From the IMG/VR virus record IMGVR_UViG_2690316097_000011: a DNA stretch of 10,114 bases; one strand, given 5' to 3'. Every line of letters begins with the position of its first letter. Position 1 is the stretch's first letter. The position numbers and the translations under genes are program-made. The DNA is from a virus. Taxonomy: Duplodnaviria > Heunggongvirae > Uroviricota > Caudoviricetes. The notes under the pieces are model-generated. The model had not been told where the DNA came from. It did not search any database and saw nothing but the letters and a program-made list of their open reading frames with translations. This document shows, piece after piece, positions 202 through 10,114 of the stretch.

Positions 202-579
202 TCAAATCCCCAGTGAAGTCACCATTGTCCTGAGAACTTGCAGAACGTCATGATCATAACTTCCATCCAAACCGCGACGGCGAATTGCTTCTCGTATTAC
301 CGGAAGCAGTTCGCTGGAAATCTCGGTGCATATTTCACCTGATAATACGCTTGGCTCAAGTGAGAATATTGGTGAACTTACGGTCTTGGTCTCGACAGTT
401 TCAGAGTCAGTGCCAACATTATAAAGCTCAACGAAAGCGGTCTTGATTTTCCGGGCCAGATCTTTTGCTGGCTCGCTTGCAATATCTTTCCCGATTTCTC
501 GCAGCACAGAATGCAATGTATGAGCTGCTGTTTTCTGTACATCAGACGGTAAATCTTTAAATTCCATCGTCAGCCTCAT
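202..579 (-). CDS. hypothetical protein, distal gene of the leftward operon
   Basis: 125 aa ORF. Its ATG at 579 overlaps the upstream stop (TGATG). An in-frame ATG at 567 with a GAGG Shine-Dalgarno 6 nt upstream is an alternative start (121 aa). No recognisable domain by eye. Confidence 0.55.
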   Translation of the reverse strand: MRLTMEFKDLPSDVQKTAAHTLHSVLREIGKDIASEPAKDLARKIKTAFVELYNVGTDSETVETKTVSSPIFSLEPSVLSGEICTEISSELLPVIREAIRRRGLDGSYDHDVLQVLRTMVTSLGI

Positions 580-731
580 CAGTCAGTGTTTCTGGCTAAC
601 CAGCAACGCGCGCCAGATTCGGTTTTAAACGTTTTGCTTTTGGTATACGTCATGGCGGTAAACGTTCCATCCTGGTTAGGGAACACGCCGCACACCAGAG
701 ATTCGTTGTTGCCAAGATCGATAGTATCCAT
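579..731 (-). CDS. small hypothetical protein (50 aa from the ATG at 731; ORF could extend to 785 giving 68 aa)
   Basis: The ATG at 731 has a GAGG Shine-Dalgarno (aaatGAGGtcagcATG on the minus strand); the ATG at 785 has none. Stop overlaps the next gene start. First gene downstream of the OL-like operators. Confidence 0.45.
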   Translation of the reverse strand: MDTIDLGNNESLVCGVFPNQDGTFTAMTYTKSKTFKTESGARCWLARNTD

Positions 732-912
732 GCTGACCTCATTTCCCCTTAACGCCGGGGTGGCGGAACAAAAAACCTGCTGCATAGTTAAAGATTGAAC
801 CCTGCCGTCATGTTCTTACGCCTCGGGCTGGCTACTTAACCCCTGACCACTGTCTGGTAACTCGAAGTATTGCCCTGCATTCTGTGGGGCGGGGTGGGTT
901 GACGCCTGAAAC

Positions 913-954
913 AATAGCATCATTATTTTTTTTGATGTAAATAGCATCGCTATT
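913..954. promoter_or_regulatory. OL-like operator pair: two 15 bp palindromes AATAGC-N3-GCTATT
   Basis: AATAGCATCATTATT at 913-927 and the perfect palindrome AATAGCATCGCTATT at 940-954, centres 27 bp apart. The same half-site recurs between the repressor and cro-like genes. Lies between the terminator of the repressor operon and the leftward genes. Confidence 0.5.
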
Positions 955-970
955 GTTTTTTGTTGGGGCA

Positions 971-994
971 AGAAAAAACCACCCTAAGGTGGTT
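971..994 (-). terminator. Rho-independent terminator of the repressor-antitoxin-toxin operon
   Basis: 7 bp perfect stem (977-983 pairs with 988-994, AACCACC/GGTGGTT) with a 4 nt loop, followed on the minus-strand transcript by UUUUCUU. Sits 17 nt after the toxin stop codon. Confidence 0.6.
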
Positions 995-1010
995 CTGTCG
1001 GCGGGAATAA

Positions 1011-1301
1011 TTAACTGTTTTTGCCTGGATACTGTCTTCGAGAATGCACAATATTTACTACTTCTATGCTTGATGCTGTTACTCGGTAAAGGATGATGTA
1101 GTTAGGATGAGTTACAATTTCACGAAGACCAAGAACTCGCTCGCTTGGAGGATACAGGTAAGGATGCTCTGTGAGCGGCAAAACGGATGTTTCAATTCGA
1201 ATTTTCATTCTGCGTGCTGCCGCGGGATTTTCTTTAGCTATGTAGGCTACGATCTGGCGCAAATCATCACGAGCAGATGGTAGCCATAAAACGGGTAACA
1301 T
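1011..1301 (-). CDS. parE: ParE/RelE-family type II toxin
   Basis: 96 aa. Translation MLPVLWLPSARDDLRQIVAYIAKENP...IILYRV has the ParE/RelE-like length and motif pattern. Start overlaps the upstream gene stop (TAATG), typical of toxin-antitoxin pairs. Confidence 0.85.
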   Translation of the reverse strand: MLPVLWLPSARDDLRQIVAYIAKENPAAARRMKIRIETSVLPLTEHPYLYPPSERVLGLREIVTHPNYIILYRVTASSIEVVNIVHSRRQYPGKNS

Positions 1302-1495
1302 TATTCACCTCTGTGAGTTGCAGCAGCAATTTGGGCAATAATTTGTTCCATTTCCGCCATTACCTCATCATGCGGAATCGCCGGGCGGGGATCCGCGAGG
1401 CTTGCTGCTACTTTGGCCCGCAGCCATTCGTTGTAACTATTTTCTTGCTCAACTGTCTCAAATTCTGAAACCATTGGGGAAAGGACTGTACTCAT
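1301..1495 (-). CDS. paaA: PaaA-like antitoxin (ParE-associated antitoxin)
   Basis: 64 aa. Motif LSPMVSEFETVEQENSYNEWLRAKVAASLADPRPAIPHDEV resembles, from memory, PaaA2 antitoxins of the prophage-borne paaR2-paaA2-parE2 systems of E. coli O157. Good Shine-Dalgarno (AGGAGA, 8 nt spacer). Immediately upstream of the toxin. Confidence 0.75.
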   Translation of the reverse strand: MSTVLSPMVSEFETVEQENSYNEWLRAKVAASLADPRPAIPHDEVMAEMEQIIAQIAAATHRGE

Positions 1496-1514
1496 TTTAC
1501 ATATCTCCTCTGAT

Positions 1515-2015
1515 TTAGGCGCGACGGCCTTTTTGTGCAGCTAACCACCGCGCAACCGTACGATCCATTGATTCTTTTTTATCTTTCATCTCCTGAAGCA
1601 TGTGTTCTTGATCTTCTTTCGGAAAAGCTCTGAACGTATGGATTAAATCTCGTTCCATCGGCTCTACGGCAAACGGTAGTTCATCCTCTGTTTGTTCTGT
1701 GTCTGCTGGTAATGCGACTATGTTATCTTGCTGTGGTTCTCGACAATACATCCTTGCAATTTGCAGCAAATCTACCATGTCTGGCCTGATTGACTCAGGG
1801 GGAACTTTCAGTAAGCCAGCAAACTTTAGAACAGCCTCAAGGTTTAGTGGGGTTTGACCATTTAGGTAGTGACTTACCGCCCCTTGTGTTGAAAACCCCA
1901 TAATTTCCGCCGCACGTTCCTGAGTCAATCCCAACTGAGATTTCTTTGCCATCCAGATTTCTTTCAGTCTTCTGGCGGCGTTGAGGTCGGTGTCTGACAA
2001 TGATTTTCTTTTCAT
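1515..2015 (-). CDS. lambda-CI-like prophage repressor (HTH, PaaR-like), without an S24 peptidase domain
   Basis: From the ATG at 2015: MKRKSLSDTDLNAARRLKEIWMAKKSQLGLTQERAAEIMGFSTQGAVSHYLNG... aligns by eye with the lambda CI N-terminal DNA-binding domain. The C-terminal 80 aa show no Ser/Lys autocleavage motifs. The ORF can extend to a GTG at 2045. Stop lies 18 nt before the antitoxin start. Confidence 0.85.
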   Translation of the reverse strand: MKRKSLSDTDLNAARRLKEIWMAKKSQLGLTQERAAEIMGFSTQGAVSHYLNGQTPLNLEAVLKFAGLLKVPPESIRPDMVDLLQIARMYCREPQQDNIVALPADTEQTEDELPFAVEPMERDLIHTFRAFPKEDQEHMLQEMKDKKESMDRTVARWLAAQKGRRA

Positions 2016-2027
2016 ACATCCAATTCT

Positions 2028-2090
2028 AATAAGATTGCTAATCACTTTGAAATAGCATCACTATTTACTTTTAAAAATAACAGTGCTATT
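2028..2090. promoter_or_regulatory. OR-like operator region in the divergent repressor/cro-like intergenic space
   Basis: AATAGCATCACTATT at 2051-2065 and AATAACAGTGCTATT at 2076-2090, plus a weaker AATAAGATTGCTAAT at 2028-2042. Centres are 23-25 bp apart, echoing lambda OR1-3. Same half-site as the left operator pair. Confidence 0.55.
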
Positions 2091-2126: not shown

Positions 2127-2390
2127 ATGAATCTTGGAGAATATTTGCATCATTTTCATATAACCCAGAGTTCATTTGCTGAGATTGTTGGCGCATCCCA
2201 AGGGATGGTCAGCCACGTTATAACGGGGCGTGCAAAACTTACAGGAGAAAAAATATTACGTTGGTGTGAAGCAACGGGATGGGTGGTGACCCCACATGAG
2301 ATTGACAGTAAAACCTACCCCAACCCAACTGACGGCTTGCCTGCTGAGTTTCAGGCTAACACACAACCATCGGCGGGGGTTGATTCATGA
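2127..2390 (+). CDS. Cro-like / YdaS-family HTH regulator
   Basis: 87 aa from the ATG at 2127 (ORF opens at a TTG at 2100). HTH-like segment QSSFAEIVGASQGMVSHVITG. Divergent from the repressor across the operator region. Stop overlaps the next start (ATGA). Confidence 0.75.
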   Translation: MNLGEYLHHFHITQSSFAEIVGASQGMVSHVITGRAKLTGEKILRWCEATGWVVTPHEIDSKTYPNPTDGLPAEFQANTQPSAGVDS

Positions 2391-2812
2391 AAATCAAGCA
2401 TGAACACATCCGCATGGCGATGAAAGCCTGGGCGCATCCGGACGGTGAAAAAGTTCCGGCAGCTGAAATAACCAGGGTTTATTTCGAACTGGGAATGACG
2501 TTTCCGGTTCTGCATAACGACAGCAAGCACAACACGCTTTATCTCAACACCCAAAAGATTTTCCGTTGGCTGGATAAAGACACCCCTGACGCTGTTGAAA
2601 AAATTCAGGCGTTGTTACCTGCGATCGAAAGGGCAATGCCACCTCCGCTGGTGGCTCGAATGCGCAGCCACAGTTCAGCTTATTTTCGGGAACTGGTGGA
2701 GACGCATGAACGACTGGTGAGAGACGCTGATGATTTTGTCGCAGTGGCAATCGCCGGTTTCAATCAGATGAACCGTGGTGGCCCGGCAGGAAATGCTGTG
2801 GCAGTACATTGA
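2387..2812 (+). CDS. CII-like / YdaT-family protein
   Basis: 141 aa beginning MKIKHEHI and ending ...AVH, as YdaT-family proteins do. Occupies the cII position between the cro-like gene and the replication genes. Confidence 0.75.
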   Translation: MKIKHEHIRMAMKAWAHPDGEKVPAAEITRVYFELGMTFPVLHNDSKHNTLYLNTQKIFRWLDKDTPDAVEKIQALLPAIERAMPPPLVARMRSHSSAYFRELVETHERLVRDADDFVAVAIAGFNQMNRGGPAGNAVAVH

Positions 2813-2883
2813 CTGACAATAGCCATATCGAATCGCTCCCGGCAACTCGTGAGTAAAAAGATTCGGTATCAGAAGAGGTGAGT

Positions 2884-3948
2884 ATGGCTAACGCCTGGCT
2901 CAGATTATGGCATGACATGCCAAATGACCCTAAGTGGCGAACAATTGCCAGGGTGTCAGGGCAGCCAATTGCAACAGTGATGGCAGTGTATATCCACCTC
3001 CTGGTGAGCGCGTCACGAAATGTCACGCGAGGTCACATTGATGTCACGACAGAAGATTTGGCAAGTGCGCTCGACGTGACAGAAGAGGTAATTGATTCAA
3101 TTTTGCAGACGATGCAGGGGCGGGTACTTGATGGTGATTTAATCACTGGATGGGAAAAACGCCAGGTGCTTAAAGAGGACAACGGCAATATTTCGCAAAC
3201 CGCAAAATCTCCTGCAGAGCGCAAGAGGGCGCAGCGAGAGAGGGAAAGAAAGCGGGAACAAAATGGCGATTGTCACGGCGCGTCACGAAATGTCACGCAC
3301 ATGTCACGACGAGTCACGACAGATACAGATAAAGATACAGATAAAGAAGATCAAAACACTATGGTCCATGGCGTAAAAAACGCCACGAACCAGGCAGGGG
3401 ATGTTCAGACCGTCAATCCTGGTCAGCCAGCAGGCTCGACACCGGAAGCCGATTCAGCGTATGCGCTGAAAGCCGATTCGGGCGCTGTGCAGCAGGTGAT
3501 GACCGCAAGGCCGGAGCAATCACTCCAACTGCAGCAGCCTGAAGCCGATTCCGCCATTCAGCGGGAAGCCGATCGGGTAGCCCCGGAAAACACCGGGCAG
3601 CCTGTGGGACGAGTGGATTATCCGGATGTGTTCGAACAGGTCTGGCGGGAATACCCGTTGCGTGCCGGGGCAAACCCGAAGAAATCCGCATTCAGTGCCT
3701 GGAAGGCCAGATTGCGCGAGGGGGTGCCACCAGAGACCATGCTGGATGGTGTGAGGCGTTACGCGAGATACCTGGCGGCGACCGGGAAAGCGGGAACGGA
3801 ATTTGTTCAGCGAGCGACGACGTTTTTTGGGCCGGACCGGAATTTTGAAAACCCCTGGTTGCTCCCGGTAAGCGGCACGAACAACCAGCGTTGTGTGAAT
3901 CATATTTCTGAACCGGATACCGAAATTCCGCCGGGATTCAGGGGGTGA
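2884..3948 (+). CDS. replication initiator / replisome organiser (lambda O-like, YdaU/DUF1376-type N-terminus)
   Basis: 354 aa from the ATG at 2884 (GAGG Shine-Dalgarno 5 nt upstream; GTG at 2878 possible). N-terminus MANAWLRLWHDMPNDPKWR, a low-complexity charged linker, and a C-terminal domain. Sits directly upstream of the DnaC-like gene and contains the iteron arrays. Confidence 0.8.
   Translation: MANAWLRLWHDMPNDPKWRTIARVSGQPIATVMAVYIHLLVSASRNVTRGHIDVTTEDLASALDVTEEVIDSILQTMQGRVLDGDLITGWEKRQVLKEDNGNISQTAKSPAERKRAQRERERKREQNGDCHGASRNVTHMSRRVTTDTDKDTDKEDQNTMVHGVKNATNQAGDVQTVNPGQPAGSTPEADSAYALKADSGAVQQVMTARPEQSLQLQQPEADSAIQREADRVAPENTGQPVGRVDYPDVFEQVWREYPLRAGANPKKSAFSAWKARLREGVPPETMLDGVRRYARYLAATGKAGTEFVQRATTFFGPDRNFENPWLLPVSGTNNQRCVNHISEPDTEIPPGFRG
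3009..3048. repeat. iteron cluster 1 (GTCACG core with 10-11 bp phasing) inside the initiator gene
   Basis: GTCACG at 3012, 3022 and 3043, GTCAC at 3032, and an inverted CGTGAC at 3075. A 20 bp block CGCGTCACGAAATGTCACGC is repeated at 3279-3298. Confidence 0.55.
3271..3346. repeat. iteron cluster 2 plus adjacent GATACAGATAAA tandem repeat; putative phage origin
   Basis: GTCACG at 3272, 3282, 3292, 3303 and 3313 (spacing 10, 10, 11, 10 bp), immediately followed by AGATACAGATAAAGATACAGATAAAG at 3321-3346. Confidence 0.6.
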
Positions 3949-5463: not shown

Positions 5464-5705
5464 ATGGCAAAAGTATTTACACAGGAAGAGCGGGAAAAAA
5501 TTAAGGGGCAGGTTGTTGAACTCGTACGCCAGAGTGGGCGCGAGACGTTACGACAACTGGAAGCTAAAACCGGGGCGACAAGATATTTAATAAGCGTTCT
5601 CGCCAGAGAGCTGGTTGCCAGTGGGGATGTATACAACTCTGGCTACGGGTTATTCCCGTCTGAACAGGCTCGTAAGGACTGGCAAAACGCCCGCAAAAAA
5701 CTCTC
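5464..5705 (+). pseudogene. 5' portion of a phage gene interrupted by an IS3-family remnant
   Basis: Starts MAKVFTQEEREKIKGQVVELVRQSGRETLRQLEAKTGATRY... and reads into IS-derived sequence after ...ARKKLS at about 5705. A paralogous 3' portion resumes at 6002. Confidence 0.6.
5497..5705. repeat. about 209 bp imperfect direct repeat, copy 1
   Basis: Aligns by eye with 6002-6210 at roughly 90% identity (the last 110 bp nearly identical). Both copies end ...CGCAAAAAACTCTC. Confidence 0.8.
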
Positions 5706-6001
5706 GAACGGTGGCTGAACTGGAATCTGAAATTCTGCAACTGCGTAAGGCGTTAAATGAAGCTCGCCTTGAGCGAGATATATTAAAAAAAGAACAAATG
5801 GTAGTGTCCGCTATTGCCAGTACACCTCAAAGAGATAATCGGGAAGCGCCTTCACTGATCGAAAGTTGATTTTCAGGAACCGTTCTGACAGCTTCGGCTT
5901 TGAACTCTTTAGAGTAACGTTGGGTTTTTCTGCTCATTATTAGCTCCTTCTGATGCCATTCTATTTCAGGAAGGAGTGTCCGTTAAACTCAGGCTACCTC
6001 A
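5706..6001. mobile_element. scrambled IS3-family (IS600-like) remnant made of two oppositely oriented fragments
   Basis: Minus strand 6001 to 5830: terminal repeat TGAGGTAGCCTGAGTTTAACGGACACTCC, then a Shine-Dalgarno and ATG at 5937 encoding MSRKTQRYSKEFKAEAVRTVPENQLSISEGASRLSL (OrfA N-terminus), then stop. Plus strand 5706-5793 encodes RTVAELESEILQLRKALNEARLERDILKK (OrfA leucine zipper), followed by a second terminal-repeat-like end at 5800-5829. Confidence 0.75.
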
Positions 6002-6210
6002 AAAATTAAAGGGCAGGTTGTTGAACTTGTACGTCTGAGCGGTCGCGAGACGTTGCGGCAACTGGAAGCCAAGACAGGTGCGACAAGATATCTGATGAGT
6101 GTTCTCGCCAGAGAGCTGGTTGCCAGTGGCGATGTATACAACTCTGGTTACGGGTTATTCCCGTCTGAACAGGCGCGTAAGGACTGGCAAAACGCCCGCA
6201 AAAAACTCTC
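6002..6210. repeat. about 209 bp imperfect direct repeat, copy 2
   Basis: Paralogous to 5497-5705. Begins immediately after the IS terminal repeat at 6001. Confidence 0.8.
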
Positions 6211-7019: not shown

Positions 7020-8852
7020 ATGGCCCGCATGTTTGATACATTAGGATTTTACATTATGAATGTGCAACATTTTGATTTTTTTACAGATAATGAGTTTTCT
7101 AATCTGGAAAGATATCAAACTTGTAAAGCCATGGCCAAAGGTTATGCGGGCAATTACAAAACCGGGCAGTCAAGGTTGATGCATGCCCGCTCATACTGCT
7201 TCAGCATCGTAGCTGCATATTGGGATACCCTTGCAAAAAAGCAAAAAAGCAGCATTAAAATGAGGGCAGTACCGCACACTGTTTACATAGAAGACATTCC
7301 ATGTGATGCACGCGAGCTCGCTGAACGAACAGGTGAGCTTATTGCTCAATTTCCGGCGGAGGACGCTGGATATCTGATTGGGTCAATTTATACGGTAATG
7401 CTGCCATCCGCTTACCGTTCGGAATTGGGGGCTTACTATACCCCCCCACCTTTGGTAGCGCGTCTCTTGGACCTGGCTGAAAAGTCTGGTGTTGATTTTT
7501 CTCATGCATCGGTTATTGATCCTGCGTGTGGTGGCGGTGCATTTTTGGCACCAGTAGCCATTCGAATGTTAAAAAAAGACAAGGGGTCTTCCCCTGAATG
7601 GATGTTGAGGAGAATCAGTCGTCGTTTAAAGGGGATAGAAATCGATCCATTTGCGGCTTGGATGAGTTTGGTATTGCTCGAATCTGTACTAATGCCACTA
7701 TGTGTAAAGGTAAAACGTAGATTGCCTGAAGATACAATTATTGTTGCTGATGCGCTTCAGCAAGATAAATTTTCTGGTTATGATCTTGTGGTAGGGAATC
7801 CGCCTTACGGACGTGTCACTCTCGATATTAAAACGAGAGAAAAATATTCTCGTTCGTTATTTGGTCATGCAAATCTATATGGATTGTTCACCGACTTAGC
7901 TGTTCGCATGGTTAAAGAGAAAACAGGAGTTATTGCATTTCTTACGCCAACTTCTTTTCTTGGTGGGCAGTATTTCACCGCGCTGCGAACCCTTTTGACC
8001 GAAAAAACTACTCCGTATGCCCTTGATTTCGTCACTGACAGGGATGGGGTCTTTGACGATGTTCTCCAGGAAACAATGTTGACAGCATTCAAGGCGGGAG
8101 AACATAAAGTTCGGGCCCAGGTATCCTCACTTGTCCCTAAGGGGTTGAACAAAGCAAAAATTGAGAAAATAGGTAATGTTGATATAGAAAAAGGTGGAGC
8201 AACGTGGCTTTTGCCACGCGTTAAAGATGATGCCTGTTTTCTTAATGTATTAAAACAGATGTCTACGCGTTTAGCTGATCTGGGATACTCAGTCTCTACA
8301 GGTCAGTTAGTCTGGAATCGATTTAAGTCGCAGTTGCGTACGACGAAAGGAAAAAATAGCTACCCATTAGTCTGGGCGGAATCAATAACTTCAGCTGGTT
8401 TTCGTTTTAGTGCAGACAGAAAAAATCATGTTCCCTATATCGATATAACCCCACAACAGGGTTTCCTTGTGACAAAATCTGAATGTGTGCTTGTTCAGCG
8501 GACAACATCGAAGGAACAGGACAGAAGGATTTTAGCGGCAATTTTACCTCAGGGATTTATAGATGAAACTGGTGGCGTAGTAGTTGAAAACCATATTAAT
8601 ATTGTATATTCAAACGGATTGTTCTCTGCGGTTCGCCCTGATGTTATTGATATGCTACTTAATTCGCATGTTGTCGATCGGGCGTTCAGGTGTATAAGCG
8701 GAAGTGTTGCTGTTTCGGCCTATGAATTGAATTCAATCCCGTTGCCTTCTCTGGAGCAGGTGATGGAGATTCAATCGTTAATTGATGCTGGCGTCCACAG
8801 ACGGATTATTGAGAGAACTATCGCTGGTTTCTATGGAGTGATGATTGCATGA
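7020..8852 (+). CDS. gamma-class N6-adenine DNA methyltransferase (Eco57I/PstI-like family)
   Basis: 610 aa. Motif X (GAYYTPPPLV), motif I (VIDPACGGGAFL) and motif IV (VVGNPPYGR) occur in the gamma-class order, with a roughly 300 aa C-terminal region as a probable target-recognition domain. Alternative ATGs at 7029 and 7056. About 27% GC at the 5' end. Confidence 0.9.
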   Translation: MARMFDTLGFYIMNVQHFDFFTDNEFSNLERYQTCKAMAKGYAGNYKTGQSRLMHARSYCFSIVAAYWDTLAKKQKSSIKMRAVPHTVYIEDIPCDARELAERTGELIAQFPAEDAGYLIGSIYTVMLPSAYRSELGAYYTPPPLVARLLDLAEKSGVDFSHASVIDPACGGGAFLAPVAIRMLKKDKGSSPEWMLRRISRRLKGIEIDPFAAWMSLVLLESVLMPLCVKVKRRLPEDTIIVADALQQDKFSGYDLVVGNPPYGRVTLDIKTREKYSRSLFGHANLYGLFTDLAVRMVKEKTGVIAFLTPTSFLGGQYFTALRTLLTEKTTPYALDFVTDRDGVFDDVLQETMLTAFKAGEHKVRAQVSSLVPKGLNKAKIEKIGNVDIEKGGATWLLPRVKDDACFLNVLKQMSTRLADLGYSVSTGQLVWNRFKSQLRTTKGKNSYPLVWAESITSAGFRFSADRKNHVPYIDITPQQGFLVTKSECVLVQRTTSKEQDRRILAAILPQGFIDETGGVVVENHINIVYSNGLFSAVRPDVIDMLLNSHVVDRAFRCISGSVAVSAYELNSIPLPSLEQVMEIQSLIDAGVHRRIIERTIAGFYGVMIA

Positions 8853-9931
8853 ATCTGCCTGTTGTTCCCCCATTGAATGTTATCCGGGAAAGATTACAAT
8901 TAATTTTCCCTGAAGGGACTGAGAATCGTGGATATTTAATTCGGGAAATAGCTGCAAAAACAATTTTTGTCATGTTTTATGCTGGTGCGGTTGAGGGGCT
9001 GGGGCGATGGATAAGGCCCAGCCAGGTTGTAAGTATGGGAGATTCGCAGGCTGCTCTTACTGATGATGCGTCCAGAGAAAGCTGGGTAAAGATGACTTTC
9101 TCTAAACAAAAGATAAGGCCTGCTGATGCATGGTATGCGGAAAATACGCGTGAGCCAATACGTGATGAAACTATAAAAAATGGCCTAATACCTTGCAATG
9201 CAATTGTTGAGCGTAAAGGTATACCCACCACATCCTCTCGTCCTCGTTACAGTTTGAATCGCTCTTTTGCAGCACTCTTTGATGCCGGGCTTGAAGGAGA
9301 TTCGCTGCTGAGTGCAATAAGTTCCTGGCAAGAAAATCATTTGAACAAAGCCGCTCTTGCTAGGTTGCGTTTATTGAAATCAGGGGCAGTGATTGCTGCT
9401 GATGCCGTAGTCGTCACTTTCCCAAATGGAGAGAAGAGAACTTTAGCTCCGGGCCCGTCAAGTACAATAGCTAAGGCCGTCATCGAAGTTTTTGCTCCTA
9501 ATTTTCTTAAGAATCCAACTGTGCTCTGGTTGTCTGAATCCGGGAATAAAGTTGTTGCTCAGGATGATGTATTGGCAAAAGCATTGGGGCTGAATATTGA
9601 TGCCTCAAAAGCACTTCCAGATATTATTTTGATTGATTTGGGAGAGGACCGAACGGGTTCGGACATGCTTGTAGTTTTCACTGAAGTAGTTGCGACAGAT
9701 GGGCCTATAAACAGGGAACGAAAAGTTACTCTCACTCATTTGGCTATTGACGCTGGGTTCAGCGAGAAAAATCTTGCATTCCTTACGGCATTTATGGACA
9801 GAAGTGCTCTGCCTTTTAAAAAGGCAATACCAGAATTGGCGTGGGGATCTTATGCATGGTTTGCTTCTGAACCGGAGCACTTAATTGATCTTCGGGATGG
9901 TTATCCGGTAAAGATCAGCCAGAGAAAATGA
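8849..9931 (+). CDS. putative restriction endonuclease partner (possibly BsuBI/PstI family); function unverified
   Basis: 360 aa, translationally coupled to the methyltransferase (ATGA overlap at 8849-8852). Size and two-domain layout fit BsuBI/PstI-type endonucleases. A candidate nuclease core PDIILIDLGED...LVVFTEVVATDGPINRERK is only weakly PD-(D/E)xK-like. Confidence 0.55.
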   Translation: MNLPVVPPLNVIRERLQLIFPEGTENRGYLIREIAAKTIFVMFYAGAVEGLGRWIRPSQVVSMGDSQAALTDDASRESWVKMTFSKQKIRPADAWYAENTREPIRDETIKNGLIPCNAIVERKGIPTTSSRPRYSLNRSFAALFDAGLEGDSLLSAISSWQENHLNKAALARLRLLKSGAVIAADAVVVTFPNGEKRTLAPGPSSTIAKAVIEVFAPNFLKNPTVLWLSESGNKVVAQDDVLAKALGLNIDASKALPDIILIDLGEDRTGSDMLVVFTEVVATDGPINRERKVTLTHLAIDAGFSEKNLAFLTAFMDRSALPFKKAIPELAWGSYAWFASEPEHLIDLRDGYPVKISQRK

Positions 9932-10083
9932 CCAAAGTTTGATATCCGCCACGCCCTGAAGGATGGGGGTTTTACGGTGCACTGGATAAAAAATCGGTTT
10001 CATAGATTTGCCCACCGTGGTATACGCCTGCGATAAAAACTTTATTGTCATCAACGGCAAAAGCAATAATTGTTCTGTGGCGG

Positions 10084-10114
10084 GGTGATGCTGCCAACTT
10101 ACTGATTTAGTGTA
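10084..10114 (+). mobile_element. IS1 left end (terminal inverted repeat), same orientation as the IS1 at 1-69; continues beyond the window
   Basis: GGTGATGCTGCCAACTTACTGATTTAGTGTA is the canonical IS1 5' terminus. Confidence 0.9.

Follow-up and report, generated by a model that had tools for sequence, protein, structure and literature searches.

Which role does a toxin-antitoxin (TA) pair play when it stands directly behind the repressor of a prophage, in the position that rexA and rexB occupy in phage lambda? This question is raised by a locus in the IMG/VR virus record IMGVR_UViG_2690316097_000011, of which we analyzed a window of 10,114 nucleotides, i.e. the whole stretch of DNA considered here. 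The initial annotation had read the region 1011-2015 as a repressor, a PaaA-like antitoxin and a ParE-like toxin arranged head to tail on the minus strand; all three open reading frames are confirmed, and the three genes are intact:

1515-2015, minus strand: prophage repressor gene (PaaR-type CI analog), 166 aa from the ATG
1301-1495, minus strand: PaaA-family antitoxin gene, 64 aa
1011-1301, minus strand: ParE-family toxin gene, 96 aa

The toxin-antitoxin pair and its hybrid repressor

Both small proteins belong to the families suspected from their sequences, with matches to ParE2 and PaaA2 in Pfam as well as in the PDB. The toxin is recognized by the ParE_toxin profile (Pfam: PF05016; 1.8e-17, 64 bits at a cut-off of 23) and can be aligned from end to end with E. 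coli O157 ParE2 (PDB: 5cw7_B; E 6.7e-37), followed by weaker PDB matches to 6x0a, 5ceg and 3kxe. The antitoxin matches the PaaA2 family (Pfam: PF21217; 3e-23, 81.9 bits at a cut-off of 27), the NCBIfam model NF050103 (94 bits) and the PaaA2 structure (PDB: 3zbe; E 1.4e-23). A ParD domain is found in the antitoxin neither by Pfam nor by NCBIfam, the PaaA2 family match standing in its place, and Pfam assigns it no helix-turn-helix (HTH) or ribbon-helix-helix (RHH) motif, i.e. no DNA-binding domain.

The ratio dN/dS lies between 0.05 and 0.14 across all three genes (0.05-0.06 for the toxin and 0.07-0.14 for the antitoxin), with synonymous divergence being saturated, which suggests strong purifying selection on each of them. 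The argument for toxicity, neutralization by PaaA and protease-dependent post-segregational killing in this allele, all of which would be expected of it, is this purifying selection.

The arrangement of the genes is tight. The repressor and antitoxin genes are separated by 19 nt (1496-1514) and not, as had been noted, by 18 nt; the sole content of this gap is a ribosome-binding site, with a Shine-Dalgarno motif GAGGAG at 1505-1510. The antitoxin stop and the toxin start share the annotated TAATG overlap, located at 1299-1303. Taken together with a single terminator after the toxin and an invariant adjacency in related loci (see below), gap and overlap make the sequence compatible with one operon for repressor, antitoxin and toxin. 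An in-frame GTG at 2045 would extend the repressor to 176 aa. It is unlikely to be the start, because the RefSeq entry for a locus with 99% identity has the 166-aa protein and because the alignment with lambda cI begins at residue 2.

The repressor is a hybrid of a lambda-cI-type N-terminal HTH domain and a PaaR/DicA-type C-terminal domain. Its N-terminal part matches HTH_3 (Pfam; 9e-9), and residues 2-81/90 align with the N-terminal domain of lambda cI (PDB: 1lmb, 1rio, 3bdn; E 3e-9 to 1e-8); the alignment with 1lmb covers residues 2-81 (E 2.9e-9) and includes the basic N-terminal arm. Similarity to full-length CI (3bdn, 7jvt) ends at residue 88-90, and the C-terminus aligns with PaaR/DicA instead. 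The C-terminal 64 aa (residues about 103-166) are 56% identical to those of PaaR from the O157 paralog described below, while BLASTP detects no similarity to the N-terminal part of that protein; the alignment with PaaR2 is poor, with 29% identity overall. All four PaaR types compared end in the common motif ARWLAAQKxRRA. Pfam detects no Peptidase_S24 domain in the repressor; hence RecA-mediated cleavage and RecA-dependent induction are not expected. The C-terminal part is also related to DicA of the K-12 prophage Qin (NCBIfam: PRK09706, positions 74-130, E 9e-8). We considered whether this domain is specific to TA loci and rejected the idea, as a related domain is present in DicA of Qin, where there is no TA pair.

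Operators, promoters and the immunity region

The following elements surround the three genes:

913-954: OL-type operator pair, AATAGCATCATTATT at 913-927 and AATAGCATCGCTATT at 940-954
Overlapping the OL pair: predicted leftward promoter PL, -35 TTTACA at 941-936, extended -10 TGcTATTGT at 919-911, 19-nt spacer
975-996, minus strand: intrinsic terminator hairpin after the toxin, 9-bp stem, U-run to about 966
2023-2051, minus strand: PRM-type promoter, -35 TTCAAA at 2051-2046, 17-nt spacer, -10 TAGAAT at 2028-2023
2028-2090: OR operator cluster, sites 2051-2065 and 2076-2090, 25 bp center to center
Overlapping the OR cluster: predicted promoter PR, -35 TTTACT at 2064-2069, extended -10 TGcTATTAA at 2084-2092
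2127-2390, plus strand: YdaS-like HTH gene (Cro analog); Pfam HTH_3, PHROG 35 transcriptional repressor (8e-17), RefSeq annotation of the 99%-identical locus
2380-2397: YdaT recognition site (PRE/OM analog), perfect match TTGATTCATGAAAATCAA, at the ydaS/ydaT junction
2387-2812, plus strand: YdaT-family gene (CII analog); Pfam YdaT_toxin (5e-9), PHROG 163 CII-like activator (3e-40)

A search of the whole 10-kb window for AATAGC-N3-GCTATT with at most two mismatches returns four sites against 0.43 expected, and these are exclusively 913-927, 940-954, 2051-2065 and 2076-2090. The module thus does lie between two operator clusters, as had been claimed, with one pair of the palindromes at 913-954 and the other at 2051-2090. 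On the right-hand side, the operator at 2051-2065 adjoins the PRM -35 and covers the predicted PR -35, and that at 2076-2090 covers the predicted PR spacer and -10. A candidate third OR operator at 2028-2042, inside the PRM spacer, carries three mismatches, is not above chance and is partly conserved. Alleles that are about 79% identical keep the operator half-sites; the central triplet varies.

PL and PR share the same -35 / extended -10 architecture, the 19-nt spacer of PL being suboptimal. We infer PL from reading the sequence and from the analogy with PL933P (PMC8630535). As the promoter scan as a whole is at chance level (3 found vs 3.2 expected), the PRM is assigned by its position and its conservation: its -35, its -10 and the repressor ATG are invariant in the alleles of about 79% identity, and the intervening bases vary. 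The ATG at 2015 follows 8 nt beyond the PRM -10 and has no Shine-Dalgarno motif, from which we predict that the repressor mRNA is leaderless or nearly so, starting at the ATG or 1 nt before it.

The terminator that had been proposed at 971-994 is real, although its coordinates shift to 975-996. The hairpin was detected by RNA folding (dG -15.1 kcal/mol, z = -2.9; 1 of 200 shuffles equally stable) and is not listed by the consensus terminator scan of the window. Its stem is invariant in diverged loci, and its loop varies between TAAG, GAAG and AAAG. The YdaT box occurs as a single exact match in the window and in none of 200 shuffles, and 16 of 18 related loci retain it. No RNA family was found in the window with Rfam.

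Beyond the operators, the genes are those of a lambdoid immunity region, from a prophage of the DicA/Rac/CP-933P kind. The YdaS-like gene is transcribed divergently from the repressor gene, the product of the YdaT-family gene is 81% identical to O157 YdaT, and a DUF1391/ydfA-type gene lies to the left of the module. With OL/PL on one side, PRM/OR on the other and ydaS/ydaT-like genes diverging rightward, the rex position ascribed to the pair is correct. In the 99%-identical locus of E. coli FDAARGOS_944 (RefSeq), the left arm reads int, exo, dicB, ydfC, ydfB, ydfA up to the toxin gene, and the right arm leads from toxin, antitoxin and repressor through ydaS and ydaT to replication, Q, lysis and terminase genes.

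The same prophage also carries a type II restriction-modification (R-M) system and a second ParE-type toxin. Elsewhere in the window, an IS600 fragment and an internal duplication are found at 5496-6210, and the near-identical prophage contains frameshifted genes.

A sister prophage is 91-99% identical in its flanks and in the downstream R-M system and possesses a LexA-family repressor and no TA pair. Homology between the window and this prophage ends at about 897 and resumes at 2376, so that the exchanged unit comprises OL, terminator, toxin, antitoxin, repressor, OR and ydaS. These breaks indicate that the TA pair travels inside the immunity cassette.

Related systems and the linkage of repressor and TA pair

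The three-component system is already published for O157:H7 prophages, and the present locus is a rarer allele of it. The paaR2-paaA2-parE2 genes, originally reported by Hallez 2010 as cited in PMC8630535, lie in the immunity region of the cryptic prophage CP-933P of E. coli O157:H7, where the operon structure was established and explicitly compared with cI-rexA-rexB (Jurenas et al. 2021, PMC8630535). PaaR2 is a functional analog of CI 'despite lacking sequence similarity', and, as with cI, the mRNA lacks a leader; together with YdaS, the analog of Cro, it binds operators between the divergent PRM and PR and also acts at PL/OL beyond the TA genes, while YdaT, the analog of CII, activates a PRE-like promoter (PMC8630535). 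The locus is bistable, the TA genes are transcribed in both switch states, ParE2 activity is not detectable at steady state, and the module stabilizes an unstable plasmid (PMC8630535). A second O157:H7 paralog has been placed on CP-933M (PMC8630535). The TA pair is described as one that 'replaces rexA and rexB' by Prolic-Kalinsek et al. 2023 (PMC9986795), who also defined the YdaT site by DNase footprinting as TTGATT-N6-AATCAA at the ydaS/ydaT junction.

For comparison we used one locus of the paaR2 type, which contains the PaaA2 and ParE2 sequences deposited in the PDB and which is assigned to this type because its repressor starts with MQKKE, the experimentally determined N-terminus of PaaR2. 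The other reference is the second paralog, from O157:H7 strain FRIK2069, which we take to be the locus named paaR1-paaA1-parE1. The antitoxin and toxin of the window are 78% and 83% identical to those of the second paralog vs 67% and 67% to those of the paaR2 type. By sequence, the TA pair is closer to the former than to PaaA2/ParE2. DNA homology with the second paralog extends through the left flank, the toxin, the antitoxin and the repressor C-terminal domain and breaks off at position 1642 of the window. This paralog has the TA pair closest to that of the window and the same flanks (ydfA-type gene; ydaT 81%), but differs in the repressor N-terminal domain, the operators and ydaS, all of which are replaced.

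The suggestion that the locus follows the paaR-paaA-parE layout of O157 prophages holds for gene order and protein families; it does not hold for the repressor's DNA-binding domain, which is lambda-cI-like and not PaaR-like. With CP-933P the locus has in common the gene order, the strand, the position between OL/PL and PRM/OR opposite ydaS-ydaT, the PaaA and ParE families, the repressor C-terminal ARWLAAQKxRRA, a start directly at the promoter and the YdaT box at the ydaS/ydaT junction. It differs in the repressor, whose N-terminal domain is unrelated by BLASTP and whose length is 166 vs 123 aa, in a divergent C-terminal tail of the antitoxin, and in the operators: two AATAGC-N3-GCTATT palindromes per side are found here, whereas CP-933P has four 18-bp GTTTAGTAA-type repeats plus three pseudo-symmetric operators at OR, and three at OL. 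Because the operators differ, the immunity specificity should differ as well. Specific to this allele are its cI-type DNA-binding head and its own operators.

Other relatives share parts of this design. Like cI-rexA-rexB of lambda, the locus has a homologous repressor N-terminal domain with its start codon at the promoter, followed by two accessory genes, predicted to be expressed in the lysogen from the repressor transcript, and a terminator between OL and OR. Unlike lambda cI, the repressor has no S24 autocleavage/oligomerization domain and carries a PaaR/DicA C-terminal domain in its place; a ParE/PaaA TA pair stands where lambda has RexA/RexB, and only two clear operators are present per side. 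The analogy with rexAB is only positional. The DicA locus of Qin in E. coli K-12 (dicC / dicA-ydfABC-dicF-dicB) resembles the present one in its prophage framework and in the related repressor C-terminal domain, but there dicA is directly followed by ydfABC with no TA pair in between, i.e. the ground state lacking TA genes, and the DNA-binding domain is different. Canonical parDE systems (RK2, Caulobacter, Vibrio) likewise combine a toxin of the ParE fold with a small protein antitoxin; in contrast to them, the antitoxin here is PaaA without RHH and not ParD, and control lies with a separate third protein, the prophage repressor.

The distribution of the module was determined in E. coli genomes and IMG/VR contigs. 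Of 5426 complete E. coli genomes, 842 contain a related module. The window-type DNA-binding domain is found in 72 of these 5426 genomes, contiguous with the TA pair in all 72, and a near-identical allele in two. Among the IMG/VR contigs anchored on the repressor, PaaA and ParE follow immediately downstream at fixed spacing in 51 out of 51; among those anchored on the toxin, the antitoxin and the PaaR C-terminal domain lie directly upstream in 80 out of 80, with 45 heads of the window type and 35 of the type of the second O157 paralog. When the module was compared by megablast with 50,697 phage records, no match was returned; a protein search of phages yielded one record, Evi, which carries a PaaR2-type module at the corresponding position. 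Scans of one-genome-per-species contigs with the repressor and with a PaaR alignment confirmed no relatives.

The module under the prophage switch: proposed mechanism and alternatives

From these observations we conclude that the three genes very probably form an operon under the prophage switch that serves the immunity cassette as an addiction module. The present analysis contributes to this model the gene identities, the layout, the operators, the terminator, the YdaT box, the absolute linkage of repressor and TA pair and the purifying selection; co-transcription, leaderless start, repression logic, bistability, antitoxin lability and post-segregational killing are adopted from experiments with the O157 homolog.

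In the lysogen, the repressor would bind AATAGC-N3-GCTATT at OR and OL, and thereby silence the rightward promoter of ydaS/ydaT and the replication genes as well as the leftward promoter of the ydfA-type and dicB-type genes, while allowing or stimulating its own PRM. The PRM transcript, leaderless or nearly so, would run through repressor, antitoxin and toxin and end at the 975-996 hairpin. While lysogeny is being established, these three genes would be driven from a PRE-like promoter by YdaT occupying its box at 2380-2397. Because the antitoxin is devoid of a DNA-binding domain, expression of the TA pair would depend entirely on the prophage switch. PaaA is expected to bind ParE directly and so neutralize it. 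Upon loss or replacement of the cassette, the antitoxin, being labile, would decay and ParE would poison the cell, probably via interference with topoisomerase, the putative target of this ParE clade. Antitoxin decay followed by poisoning would make the pair an addiction module that stabilizes the immunity cassette and the prophage.

Three other readings of the locus have to be weighed against the addiction module. The pair could be the equivalent of rexAB, i.e. a phage-exclusion or abortive-infection system triggered in the lysogen by a superinfecting phage so as to kill the cell or arrest it. Such a function may coexist with addiction, and it would fit the rex position and expression together with the repressor (PMC9986795) as well as the other defense and addiction cargo of the prophage, i.e. 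the type II R-M system and the second ParE-type toxin. We regard it as unlikely, given that the two downstream genes show no RexA or RexB homology in Pfam, where they match PaaA2 and ParE_toxin only, and that PADLOC returns no match for toxin, antitoxin or repressor. Post-segregational killing is the sole experimental phenotype of the homolog, and activation of ParE2 was detected in neither switch state (PMC8630535). To assign the present genes a role in abortive infection is pure speculation.

An autonomous type II TA system with its own promoter in the 3' part of the repressor gene, and hence outside the prophage switch, is very improbable. An extra promoter would be compatible with the O157 TA reporter, which is on in both switch states (PMC8630535). 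It is contradicted by the antitoxin without DNA-binding domain, by the gap that holds a Shine-Dalgarno motif and nothing else, and by the promoter scan, which detects no promoter-like minus-strand site in 1496-1900; none of 131 loci departs from this spacing or from the adjacency to a PaaR C-terminal domain, and an operon structure is published for paaR2-paaA2-parE2 (PMC8630535). The view that these are leftover genes decaying inside a cryptic prophage, without current function, can draw on the decay seen elsewhere (the IS600 fragment and the duplication, the frameshifts in the near-identical prophage), but it is hardly credible in the face of three full-length open reading frames, dN/dS values of this size and the conservation of operators, terminator and YdaT box.

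The addiction module remains our preferred reading, and it leaves room for a further idea, which we put forward as a long shot: the PaaR C-terminal domain could be a docking surface for PaaA-ParE, so that the TA complex would act as a co-repressor of immunity and the DNA-binding heads, a genuine lambda-cI head among them, would be swappable on a fixed sensor. What suggests this is that the PaaR C-terminal domain always accompanies PaaA-ParE, as seen in the DNA homology from the toxin to the repressor linker and in the adjacency in 131 of 131 loci. If docking is true, the state of toxin and antitoxin would feed directly into the lysis-lysogeny switch.

In agreement with the published design, a TA pair is wired into the prophage repressor operon, and the present locus extends this design to a further immunity type. 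The TA pair and the repressor tail have been kept, while DNA-binding heads and operators have been exchanged. The kinship with CI, which the literature argued only by analogy, is supported here by homology, since a cI-homologous head is joined to a PaaR/DicA tail. With its simple operators of two palindromes each, the allele would be well suited as a model of the PaaR-type switch.

The predicted leftward promoter and its operon

The OL operators (913-927 and 940-954) overlap the predicted leftward promoter PL, and between them, inside the promoter's spacer, lies a T-run at window 923-933. Across otherwise near-identical loci the length of this run varies from T5 to T9, giving PL spacers of 16-20 nt; the predicted spacer measures 19 nt in the window versus 17 in E. 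coli FDAARGOS_944, whose locus is 99% identical. This variation may reflect sequencing noise, or it may genuinely tune how strong PL is. The predicted PL is followed by a leftward operon (202-785, minus strand):

579-785, minus: DUF1391/ydfA-type gene, first in the operon
202-579, minus: 125-aa gene (PHROG 33007), function not assigned

Possible traces of rearrangement in the window and in two viral contigs

Two direct repeats match the 5' part of a DUF977 gene and enclose an insertion sequence fragment:

5496-5705 and 6001-6210: direct repeats, 2 x 210 bp, 91% identical
About 5783-6001: IS600 (IS3 family) fragment of roughly 220 bp, between the repeats

The region 5496-6210 looks like local prophage rearrangement or decay. 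In the IMG/VR contigs L052 and L053 (about 2821-3622), an N-terminal fragment of the PaaR2 type is located directly 5' of a second, PaaR1-like repressor gene, which is followed by the toxin-antitoxin (TA) module. Recombination within the immunity region seems to have produced a tandem or hybrid arrangement of repressors there.

Restriction-modification pair and second ParE-type toxin

The early-right region of the prophage harbors a complete type II restriction-modification pair of the PstI/BsuBI type (7020-9931, plus strand), 99% identical to that of a prophage in E. coli FDAARGOS_943, and the window ends within a further toxin gene:

7020-8852, plus: methyltransferase gene (PADLOC MTase_II, 1.8e-300)
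8849-9931, plus: endonuclease gene (PADLOC REase_II, 2.8e-128)
9972-10114, minus: second RelE/ParE-family toxin gene in the window, 3' part only, truncated by the window end

This second toxin gene is also present in sister prophage L003, where a gene for a ParD-family antitoxin comes after it. The prophage thus has two ParE-type TA modules and a restriction-modification system in approximately 10 kb.
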